Assembly (NCBI RefSeq): GCF_018420025.1 | Contig: NZ_JAEDAM010000043.1 | Span: 1-8,645 of the forward strand | DNA length: 8,645 nt | Reading direction: 5' to 3' | DNA from: Candidatus Vampirococcus lugosii | GTDB taxonomy: Bacteria > Patescibacteriota > Gracilibacteria > Absconditabacterales > Absconditicoccaceae | Part shown: positions 4,457 to 8,645 of the stretch, piece after piece | Layout: each line of letters begins with the position of its first letter | Position numbering within the stretch: position 1 is the first letter of the stretch | Made by a program: the position numbers and the translations under genes | Notes under the pieces: generated by a model | What the model saw: only the letters and a program-made list of their open reading frames with translations | Database searches by the model: none | Told to the model about the DNA's origin: nothing

Positions 4457-5942
4457 CTACAAATTTATATTATTTTCATTTATAAATACTAATAATTTTT
4501 TATAATCCTCAACAAATCTCTCATTTCCACCACTTATTTTATTTCTTGATATAGATTCGTAGTGAATGGCAACTGCGTCACTAACAGTAATATTTTTTAA
4601 ACCCAATGATTTACATCTCAAATTTAATTCAACATCTTCTAAACATTCAATATAATCTTCATTGAAGCCATCAAAAGATTTAAATAATTTCTTTTTTATT
4701 AATAAAAATCCACCCGTATTACCGATTGAATTGTAATTAACATCAGTAGAATAATTATTTATTTTTTTTATGTCTTTATGTGAGATCATTAATCTATCAT
4801 CGTTCATTGATAATGTTATCCCATTATGCTGAATAGATGAATCACCATAATGTAATCTAATACCAATAGTACCGACAGTATCTTTATTTTCATTATAAAT
4901 CTGAACACATCTGCTTAATGCATCATTCAATAAAACAATGTCGTCATTGCAAAATAATAATAATTCAGTATCGTCTGATACATGATTTTTAACCACATCA
5001 TTATTAATTTTAGCAAAATTATAATAATTATATTTTATTAATTTAATTCTACTATTCAATAAACTCTTATATGTTTCGAAAACTTCTGGTTGACTTCCGG
5101 TATCTGCAATAATAATCTCATAATTATCATATTCAACTACATTATTCCATGAATTAATGTTATTGATTATGTATTTAAGATTATTTTTTGTTGGTATTAT
5201 TACAGTTACTTTTGGTTTTGATGTTAATTCAATATCAAAATCTTCAAAATCTGGTAATACCGAAATAGGTAATTCATCTTTATATTTTTCAGCCAATTGC
5301 TTACGACTTTCTTCCCACTGCTGATTGGTTTGACCAACACTTTTATGTAATATTCTAATATCTGTTGTAACGCCAATATTACAACCGTCCAAGTAGTTAG
5401 GTAAACAAAAACTGGTGTCGTAGTGATGAAATCCTTTAAAATCTTCGTCAAAATAGTGTTCTAAATTACTTGGATTAACTGCCATGAATAATCCATCGAT
5501 TAAAACAGTTGGTGTTATCTGACCCTTTCTTTCCACAGAGTATTGGCTAGTCCATTCCTGAATTCCATCTGTATGATCGACAATACCCACCATTTTAGTT
5601 CTGTCTGTCCACCACACACCGTTTTCCGGCATGTAAGTGCTACCCGCTACACCAATAATATCGTAATCGGTGAAATTGAATTTATGTAGTAAAATCTTGC
5701 CCCAATTTTTTGTTCTGAATATAATATCTGGATGTACAAATAATATAATAACATTATCCCCCTTATATTTATCAAGTGCTTTATTATAAATCTCAGTTAA
5801 TGAAAATTGATTATAGTTTTCATAACAAACAATATCATAGTTTTTAATACCGATGGTTTGTTTAATATGTTCAATAAATTTATTATTCTCAATATCACCT
5901 AAATGTGATGAAAATATTGTAATTATTTTATTTTTTTTTCAT
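4457..5942 (-). CDS. Two-domain glycosyltransferase: N-terminal Glyco_tranf_2_5-like GT-A domain plus C-terminal GT2 domain. As assembled, the ATG is out of frame by one base in an A9 tract
   Basis: C-terminal domain: KVTVIIPTKNNLKYI...YEIIIADTGSQPE...LLLFCNDDIVL (GT2). N-terminal domain: IDGLFMAVNPSNLEHYFDEDFKGFHHYDTSFCL...IRILHKSVG, matching the pattern I recall for Glyco_tranf_2_5. The track starts at ATG 5632, but I verified that the same frame is open up to 5938. That stretch encodes KKNKIITIFSSHLGD...GDNVIILFVHPDIIF...DIIGVAGSTY, the missing first half of the N-terminal GT-A domain. This frame contains no ATG/GTG/TTG. ATG 5942-5940 joins it if the A9 run (5931-5939) is read as A8, giving 494 aa. 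Confidence 0.8.
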
Positions 5943-6183
5943 AATTAATCCACTTATCATATTTTCTACTTAATCCAAATTTACTACCAGAATAGATAAA
6001 ATTCATAAATTTTATTGCATCCTTCTGTTTAGATATTGTTATTTGCGAATATCTACCTTGTTTAGTTATATATCTATAACATTTATAATCAATATCAATT
6101 AAATTAAAAAAAGACCAATCATAGTCGTAAGTTCCACTAAATCTAACCCTAATATAATTTCTACCATCACATGAGATTGACAT
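5923..6183 (-). CDS. LAGLIDADG homing endonuclease, C-terminal fragment
   Basis: In this frame the five codons just upstream of its ATG read DADGN, so the frame carries the rest of the motif (FFRGFF|DADGNMSISCDG...). The C-terminal GLSRKYDKW resembles the conserved L.RK tail of this family. Confidence 0.8.
   Translation of the reverse strand: MSISCDGRNYIRVRFSGTYDYDWSFFNLIDIDYKCYRYITKQGRYSQITISKQKDAIKFMNFIYSGSKFGLSRKYDKWINYEKKIK
5931..5939. repeat. T9 (sense-strand A9) homopolymer immediately after ATG 5942-5940
   Basis: Counted directly in tttttttttc at 5931-5940. The sense strand reads ATG AAA AAA AAA TAA as assembled. Confidence 0.95.
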
Positions 6184-6196
6184 ATTACCATCTGCA

Positions 6197-6916
6197 TCAA
6201 AAAAACCCTCTAAAAAAATATGAATGATAGATTTTATCTATATATTCTAATAAAATTTGAGGATTAATGTATGATTTTAGGTCGAATTTATATTTTATTA
6301 GTTCGTTAACTAATAAAATATTATGTGTTGATACACATAATTGATTATTTACTCTTTTGTTGTTAAAAAATTTTTTAATTGGTTTACTTATATTCCAATC
6401 ACCTGTTTTTCTAAAAACATCAATTAATTCAATCATATCACTTTCAATCATATTTACAACAATACGTGAAAGATTCACATTTATATTACCATCTCCCCAA
6501 ATTAGCCCCAATATATAAACTATTTCAGGTGTATTAAATTTTAAAAAGGTATTATAATTAACTTTATTTGAACGTAATTTAAATCCTCTCCTATTATTTT
6601 TTAATTTATGTTGAGTATCTGAATATTTAATATTTAATGAATTTGCTTTTTTAATAATATCAGATATTTCTCGATTTAATTCTTTTGCAACTAACTCTGA
6701 ACCATATGTTGAATAATTGGTTCTTAAAAAATCAATTTCATTAAGAGACCATTTATTACTTTGACCTAAAAATTTTCTATTAATCTTTAATTCCTTTACT
6801 TTAGAATAAATAGATTCTTTGGTTCTATCTAAATTAATAGAACAATACTCTCTACCATACAATGGATATTTTTCAATTAAGAAATTAATATCATCTTTAG
6901 TCCAAGTTTTTTTCAT
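6197..6916 (-). CDS. LAGLIDADG homing endonuclease, N-terminal fragment (two Myb/SANT-like HTH repeats plus the first LAGLIDADG motif)
   Basis: First motif YILGLIWGDGNI is at 6479-6517. There is a tandem repeat W-x-x-[DN]-[DE]-I-[ND]-F-L-x3-Y-x2-YG-x-E ... L-[DN]-R ... (residues ~5-46 and ~56-97). The fragment ends ...YHSYFFRGFF then TGA (6199-6197), half-way through the second motif. Confidence 0.85.
   Translation of the reverse strand: MKKTWTKDDINFLIEKYPLYGREYCSINLDRTKESIYSKVKELKINRKFLGQSNKWSLNEIDFLRTNYSTYGSELVAKELNREISDIIKKANSLNIKYSDTQHKLKNNRRGFKLRSNKVNYNTFLKFNTPEIVYILGLIWGDGNINVNLSRIVVNMIESDMIELIDVFRKTGDWNISKPIKKFFNNKRVNNQLCVSTHNILLVNELIKYKFDLKSYINPQILLEYIDKIYHSYFFRGFF
6199..6205. repeat. 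A7 (sense-strand T7) homopolymer at the homing-endonuclease frameshift point
   Basis: Counted directly: plus strand gcatc-aaaaaaa-ccctc. The sense strand reads AGA GGG TTT TTT TGA. Confidence 0.95.
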
Positions 6917-7787
6917 ATAATGCTTTTTTTATTGTTTCATATTCTTTGGCTTTTTCCAATTCACATCTGTCACCATAACCAATTTCAATCATTCTTTTAA
7001 AAAACGGTTCAAAATCTTTAGCATATTTAACTAATTCATCTAATATTGAACTATTATAATCTGGTGTTGAAGATGCAATGTTTTCAACTAATGATAACAT
7101 TGACGGTACAGATGAATTTATATATCTTAAAATTTCTCTCGCTCCTTTATTTATTATATATCGTGGTACATCATTTTTTTTAGCCCATTGAACAATTTGA
7201 TTCGGATAAACACCTACAAGTTTAAACATAATATCCCTATAATGTTTTATTATATTTCCTTGGTCTTTAGTAAAACCATAATTTTTCATGGCGATTGCTT
7301 TACTATTATTTCGTTGAACTTGGTGTTTTGTATTTTCCTGAACAGTATTTGGTGTTGTTGTTACTAAAAATGAATATCCGTATCGTAATAATTCTTCAAT
7401 TCTATCATTACACCAAATAGAAAAATCTGCAGATAACCATCTTGCAATTTCCAATGCTATGCCTTTGTGAACCCAAGTACCTTGTTGTTTATTTAAACCA
7501 CCTCTAACAACATTAACTGATTCTGGAAACATTTTCGCTAAGTTACTGAAATTCAACGACATCGGTATGTCGATGTCGTTGATACTCAATGACTTAGAAT
7601 TTCTTGTACAATATTTATATGTTATTTCTCTTCTGGTTGGGTCATCAAGAAAATGCCCGATGTTCTTACCAAACGGTTTAACCATATCAGTAACATTAAT
7701 CATTATGTTATTAATGTTATTTAAAAATGATACATCATATTTAACACCATTTTGAGAATATTTATATATTACAATATTATTTTTCAT
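6897..7787 (-). CDS. KilA-N domain protein with an uncharacterised C-terminal half
   Basis: YDVSFLNNINNIMINVTDMVKPFGKNIGHFL...VRGGLNKQQGTWVHKGIALEIARWLSADFSIWCNDRIEELL matches the KilA-N core (G-T-W-V-H ... A-x-W-L-S-x-x-F). The last 20 nt overlap the homing-endonuclease start. Confidence 0.85.
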   Translation of the reverse strand: MKNNIVIYKYSQNGVKYDVSFLNNINNIMINVTDMVKPFGKNIGHFLDDPTRREITYKYCTRNSKSLSINDIDIPMSLNFSNLAKMFPESVNVVRGGLNKQQGTWVHKGIALEIARWLSADFSIWCNDRIEELLRYGYSFLVTTTPNTVQENTKHQVQRNNSKAIAMKNYGFTKDQGNIIKHYRDIMFKLVGVYPNQIVQWAKKNDVPRYIINKGAREILRYINSSVPSMLSLVENIASSTPDYNSSILDELVKYAKDFEPFFKRMIEIGYGDRCELEKAKEYETIKKALYEKNLD

Positions 7788-8624: not shown

Positions 8625-8645
8625 AGATCGGAAGAGCAACACGTC
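8625..8645. other. Illumina TruSeq adapter remnant (non-biological sequence)
   Basis: AGATCGGAAGAGCAACACGTC versus adapter AGATCGGAAGAGCACACGTC...: 13-nt perfect prefix, then one extra A. It is 12/21 G+C in a far more AT-rich context, at the extreme contig end. Confidence 0.9.

Follow-up and report, generated by a model that had tools for sequence, protein, structure and literature searches.

A LAGLIDADG homing-endonuclease gene that appears broken in its deposited sequence is very probably an ordinary phage gene, intact in nature, in which a run of six T residues (T6) was recorded as seven (T7), most likely in vitro, with nothing programmed about the break. We regard the interruption as an artefact, or at most as a one-off slippage variant. 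The gene lies in a window (the whole stretch of DNA analyzed here) of 8,645 nt, which is the entire contig C7 of a 1.26-Mb, 21% G+C bin deposited as Candidatus Vampirococcus lugosii. An earlier note on this DNA had offered a homopolymer error, a decaying endonuclease and a programmed +1 ribosomal frameshift as explanations; the homopolymer error fits best, given an intact copy with 99.7% identity, a second run with an extra base 260 nt away and the use of amplified DNA.

The split endonuclease gene and its predicted product

All genes in the window are on the minus strand, which at the break reads AGA GGG TTT TTT TGA TGC AGA TGG TAA TAT G. The upstream ORF (239 aa) ends ...YFFRGFF-TGA inside the T7 run, and the downstream ORF begins at an ATG (6183) 13 nt past it (Table 1). 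The split at T7, its coordinates, the motif spacing and the position of a purine-rich hexamer, all described in the earlier note, hold on this strand, with AGAGGG (6211..6206) placed 3 nt ahead of the second TTT. When TGAT is taken as one step (one T skipped), the two ORFs join into a protein of 330 aa (P0003) that carries the second motif as YFFRGFFDADGN at residues 233-244, and Asp142 and Asp242 then lie 100 residues apart in one chain, within the spacing of about 90-120 residues that marks monomeric double-motif enzymes. In frame, a T6 (GGG TTT TTT GAT) encodes the Gly-Phe-Phe-Asp of this motif. Downstream of the break 93 codons are free of stops, and every family-invariant residue is kept when compared with five intact homologs. 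Recoding was tried as a cure and rejected: reading TGA as Gly (table 25) or as Trp adds 3 codons, after which the frame meets TAA.

Table 1. Coordinates of the endonuclease gene, its break and associated features in the window
Feature	Position	Strand	Remarks
LAGLIDADG homing-endonuclease gene, free-standing	5923..6916	-	330 aa with one T of T7 skipped
Deposited form, two ORFs	6916..6197 and 6183..5923	-	
N-terminal helical repeat pair, ~50 aa each	6605..6913	-	phrog_323 and phrog_11013 match residues 2-104
First LAGLIDADG motif, YILGLIWGDGNI	6482..6517	-	residues 134-145; catalytic Asp142
Second LAGLIDADG motif, YFFRGFF/DADGN	6184..6220	-	holds catalytic Asp242; the extra T falls inside it
T7 run	6199..6205	-	one T above the in-frame T6 (GGG TTT TTT GAT)
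TGA ending frame 0 in the deposited sequence	6197..6199	-	
Predicted junction peptide of the full-length product, FFDADGNMSISCDGR			spans the break
A9 run	5931..5939	-	shared where the endonuclease gene ends and the glycosyltransferase gene begins
Illumina adapter remnant, AGATCGGAAGAGCAACACGTC	8625..8645	+	contig end

The PHROG family phrog_4645 (‘endonuclease’) matches the joined protein straight across the break (residues 74-321, E 3.9e-16). Its Pfam matches are below the cut-off (LAGLIDADG_1, E 0.021; LAGLIDADG_3, E 0.065), neither half has a Pfam match when searched separately, and a profile search of PDB sequences returned nothing useful. In staying under the Pfam cut-offs the window's sequence differs from the double-motif enzymes of PF14528 (LAGLIDADG_3), a family that is matched by the homolog P0008 (53% identity) and by 35/35 aligned relatives (E ≤ 0.001, best 2.5e-14). 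Five homologs with 51-55% identity and lengths of 324-331 aa are each encoded by a single ORF and read YFFRGFFDADGN straight across the position of the junction. The columns of ILGLIWGDG (containing Asp142) and FRGFFDADG (containing Asp242) are invariant across homologs, with G137, W140, D142 and G143 invariant in the former. End-to-end alignment with these intact homologs, together with a match at 327 of 328 positions to a near-identical protein (below), indicates that skipping one T opens a genuine frame and not a fortuitous one.

The structure was modeled for the natural, intact homolog P0008 in place of the joined protein. The AlphaFold2 model (pLDDT 91.2) retrieved the bI3 maturase, I-Tsp061I, I-AniI, I-OnuI, PI-SceI and PI-PfuI with Foldseek (probability 1.00, E ~1e-7), and the pseudo-symmetric pair of alpha-beta-beta-alpha-beta-beta-alpha domains is seen in this model of P0008, not in one of the window's protein. 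Ahead of the nuclease core are tandem repeats (WTxxEIxFLxxNYxxxG...SIYSKxxxL) that are kept in close homologs and correspond to helices 5-26/31-41 and 56-78/82-91 of the model; the PHROGs matching the repeats are annotated as a phage ‘D5-like transcriptional regulator’. These repeats are probably an accessory DNA-binding module.

Taken together, the family matches, the homolog alignment and the fold of P0008 identify the gene product as a monomeric LAGLIDADG enzyme of the double-motif type that has a helical repeat pair at its N-terminus and would act in site-specific DNA cleavage and homing. In common with I-AniI, bI3 maturase, I-Tsp061I and I-OnuI, it has a pair of LAGLIDADG helices whose acidic residues are 100 positions apart. 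Unlike the I-AniI/bI3 maturase group, it is encoded by a free-standing gene in a phage array, flanked by KilA-N and glycosyltransferase genes, rather than in an intron or intein, and it adds the N-terminal pair of ~50-aa helical repeats. Phage contigs, some of them very large (up to 545 kb), carry many relatives, and a scan of GTDB genomes gave distant archaeal and Saccharibacteria matches only.

Intact relatives and a second extra base

A near-identical intact copy (P0015) was located as a cluster mate of the 86-aa C-terminal ORF, by exact look-up and then through the cluster members. It is an uninterrupted protein of 328 aa present on 2 contigs in Logan assemblies of public runs, and it is identical to the one-T-skipped reading at 327/328 positions (99.7%) in an ungapped alignment; across the junction it reads ...YFFRGFFDADGNMSIS..., leaving RGFFDADGNMS unbroken. 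The 330-aa double-motif enzyme that the earlier note had obtained by dropping one T is thus borne out by this copy and by the intact homologs. The sole difference, D30N, means that P0015 and the window's gene come from different molecules. The broken forms (proteins of 243 and 86 aa) are on record from the NCBI deposit only, and the 239-aa form expected under the standard code is absent from the protein collection. A search of 40 related genomes for near-identical DNA gave none, just short low-complexity matches.

The C-termini also differ: P0015 ends ...NYEKK and the window's protein ...NYEKKIK, two residues longer. The sequence TAT GAA AAA AAA TAA, with a run of eight A residues (A8), would give the end of P0015 exactly; the window has nine (A9), in a run 260 nt downstream of the T7 run. 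Near-identical DNA elsewhere would accordingly contain T6 and A8, as read back from the P0015 protein. Since P0015 reads through RGFFDADGN and ends ...YEKK, the extra T and the extra A both appear to be private to the deposited contig.

The extra A bears on the neighboring gene as well, which encodes a two-domain glycosyltransferase (frame 5938..4460, 493 aa). An ATG at 5942 is followed by the A9 run and TAA, and the one extra A places this ATG out of the glycosyltransferase frame. That frame aligns with the glycosyltransferase of a syntenic relative (L088) from the first residues onward, and A8 would restore MKKNKIITIFSSHLGD, compared with MKKIIKNKIAVIFSSHLGD in L088. In the glycosyltransferase as called (391 aa), the Pfam domain begins only at profile position 96. 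No near-identical full-length glycosyltransferase was found among cluster representatives, the nearest being 74% identical. The extra A most likely has the same origin as the extra T. The L088 glycosyltransferase is itself a single-domain protein of 232 aa, while that of the window is a two-domain fusion, and directly after the L088 gene is a second LAGLIDADG paralog (6161-7054, 297 aa, ~35% identical).

Across the wider family, 159 of the 164 related loci read through the junction without a change of frame. L088 reads TTT AGG GGG TTT TTG GAT within one ORF of 324 aa (53% identity), and two further loci (L073 and L163) have GGG TTT TTT GAT, with T6 in frame. Comparison with orthologs, which the earlier note had proposed, therefore gives a clear answer: the T7 split is absent in P0015, in L088 and in those 159 loci. 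The only other frame change is in a soil metagenome locus (L155, 2080-2145), a few codons past the GDGC motif that represents motif 2 and thus away from the site at which the window's gene is broken; this locus may be an independently broken copy, or an error. Gly-Phe-Phe-Asp is often coded GGN TTT TTT GAT, making in-frame T6/T7 runs common in the family, and AGAGGG or AGGGGG precedes the motif in many intact genes. From this codon usage in intact genes, the hexamer proposed as a stimulator appears to be the conserved Arg-Gly codon pair of the family, and the T run at motif 2 a natural slippage-prone spot. A Shine-Dalgarno motif was found at 0/13 starts examined in the window and at 1/17 starts in L088. 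Both caveats that the earlier note had attached to its frameshift proposal are upheld by these counts, the one on the Arg-Gly codons because the hexamer is present in intact homologs and the one on Shine-Dalgarno usage by the window starts.

Source of the contig and of the sample

The bulk of the bin uses TGA as a sense codon (~45 per 1000 codons) and encodes a tRNA(UCA) with a glycine-type acceptor stem and U73, along with a single class-I release factor. Contigs C7, C18 and C72 are nearly devoid of in-frame TGA (1-5 per 1000 codons), and C7 stops on TGA, with ATGA start/stop overlaps at 568/565 and 2568/2565. C7 is collinear with L088, a 15.5-kb metagenome contig with 26% G+C and the standard code; the two have in common, in order, genes for a large protein, a 104-aa protein, a KilA-N protein, the LAGLIDADG enzyme and the glycosyltransferase. 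The TGA stops and this collinearity indicate that C7 is a fragment of a standard-code phage that compositional binning placed in a TGA=Gly Vampirococcus genome. By the same codon usage, C7, C18 and C72 all appear to be standard-code passengers in the bin that were annotated under table 25. C72 has tblastx matches to the same phage contigs as C7, and C18 carries four tRNA genes. Positions 1-52 of C72 match C28:54082-54133 (51/52), which lies inside C28 where one of the host ORFs has its 3' end; candidate explanations are the core of an attachment site, a chimera formed during amplification and an assembly path common to both contigs.

Binning used composition (ESOM) and genes were called with table 25 (PMC8080830, which we take as the paper describing the assembly), and this combination accounts for the deposited proteins of 243 and 86 aa. 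The starting material was consortia of about 10 cells; their DNA was amplified by MDA or MALBAC, and HiSeq 2x125 reads were assembled with SPAdes 3.6.0 (PMC8080830). Three amplified libraries from the Salada de Chiprana mat underlie the assembly (PRJNA678638), V7 and V8 made by MDA and V12 by MALBAC. Phages compatible with code 11 have been proposed for bacteria that use code 25 (PMC10746230); the present data give no link between the C7 phage and Vampirococcus.

The two breaks fall within 8.6 kb, and four long host genes (~4,000 codons) are unbroken, so this defect rate is peculiar to the passenger contig C7. These genes served for the comparison because, in a genome of 21% G+C, true gene boundaries mimic homopolymer-linked frameshifts in a genome-wide count. 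At its end C7 retains an Illumina adapter remnant that has one inserted A relative to the TruSeq sequence. It follows that the TTG ‘start’ of the last ORF is an artefact and that coverage is thin at this end of the contig.

Explanations for the extra bases

In the explanation that we favor, a large standard-code phage would carry an intact, free-standing LAGLIDADG gene, and the T6 coding the Phe-Phe of Gly-Phe-Phe-Asp would have been recorded as T7, splitting the ORF. The extra T would then have come from slippage of the polymerase, either in whole-genome amplification or in library PCR, or else from a SPAdes assembly error at thin coverage. That it arose in vitro rather than as a rare phage variant is the step that we infer, as the most likely one. 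The case resembles the homopolymer indel artefacts of low-input assemblies made with MDA or MALBAC in its single-base over-calls in A/T runs of 7-9, its untrimmed adapter end and its source in amplified material from ~10 cells. Counting against an artefact is that Illumina chemistry alone rarely miscalls T7.

We consider it unlikely that a real and very recent slipped-strand mutation from T6 to T7 inactivated this copy of the endonuclease, with A9 as a second real slippage in the same phage lineage and the break as the first step of the decay phase in the homing-endonuclease life cycle. Decay had been among the readings of the earlier note. In its favor, broken homologs do exist in nature (L155), and the one substitution relative to P0015 means that the window may represent a distinct variant. 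However, no further decay has followed past the break, where the 93 stop-free codons keep the conserved residues, and two inactivating +1 indels in 260 nt are hard to reconcile with one residue change in 328. Both breaks, moreover, are homopolymer over-calls in amplified, adapter-contaminated data. The two +1 over-calls within 260 nt, the 1/328 difference and the conserved C-terminal part together argue for an artefact over natural decay. Far less probable still is that T7 and A9 are both real in vivo and that a phage population toggles between T6 and T7 and between A8 and A9 by slippage; if it did, the endonuclease and the glycosyltransferase would be subject to phase variation, or small amounts of both would be made via +1 ribosomal or transcriptional slippage at U7.

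Two further readings are barely credible on present evidence. A prfB-type programmed +1 frameshift, in which tRNA-Phe would move from UUU to UUU at UUU UGA under stimulation by AGAGGG and yield a regulated full-length enzyme, draws on the local geometry (re-pairing with the +1 codon UUU is perfect, UGA occupies the A site and the hexamer, rich in purines, precedes the shift codon by 3 nt) and on a fully conserved downstream frame. The likeness to E. coli prfB (AGG GGG UAU CUU UGA C) is real in that a purine-rich hexamer stands 3 nt before the slippery codon, which is followed by UGA. In contrast to prfB, the site is not conserved in orthologs, being absent from the 99.7% identical copy P0015 (which lacks the extra base), from the syntenic L088 and from the other family members; autoregulatory logic and Shine-Dalgarno usage are both lacking in the element, and its hexamer (AGAGGG or AGGGGG) consists of conserved Arg-Gly codons found in intact genes. 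If the host is the bin's own organism, UGA would be a frequent Gly codon (~45/1000 codons) with a dedicated tRNA, alongside just one class-I release factor, and would cause no pause. A full-text literature search returned no title or abstract describing a programmed frameshift in a LAGLIDADG gene. This reading fails on conservation, the very point on which the earlier note had staked it. We give as little credence to the idea that T6/T7 and A8/A9 are real hypermutable tracts acting as contingency switches or rescued by transcriptional slippage, with variable expression of the endonuclease and glycosyltransferase. Each state has been recorded in near-identical DNA, and in AT-rich bacteria transcription is known to slip on A/T runs of ~9 or more. 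Against this, T7 is short for efficient slippage, both tracts would be OFF on one molecule from amplified DNA, the run consists of conserved motif codons that are in frame in every other family member, and the evidence comes from one deposit at most.

With a recording artefact as the favored explanation, the published annotation splits a functional-looking endonuclease into proteins of 243 and 86 aa, truncates a glycosyltransferase and applies the wrong code (table 25), the last because compositional binning had placed a standard-code phage fragment in a TGA=Gly genome. In amplified, single-cell-type assemblies, a break at a homopolymer should not be taken as a recoding signal unless it has read support or conservation. 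The gene itself is one more member of a large family of phage LAGLIDADG enzymes that are free-standing and carry a helical repeat module at the N-terminus.
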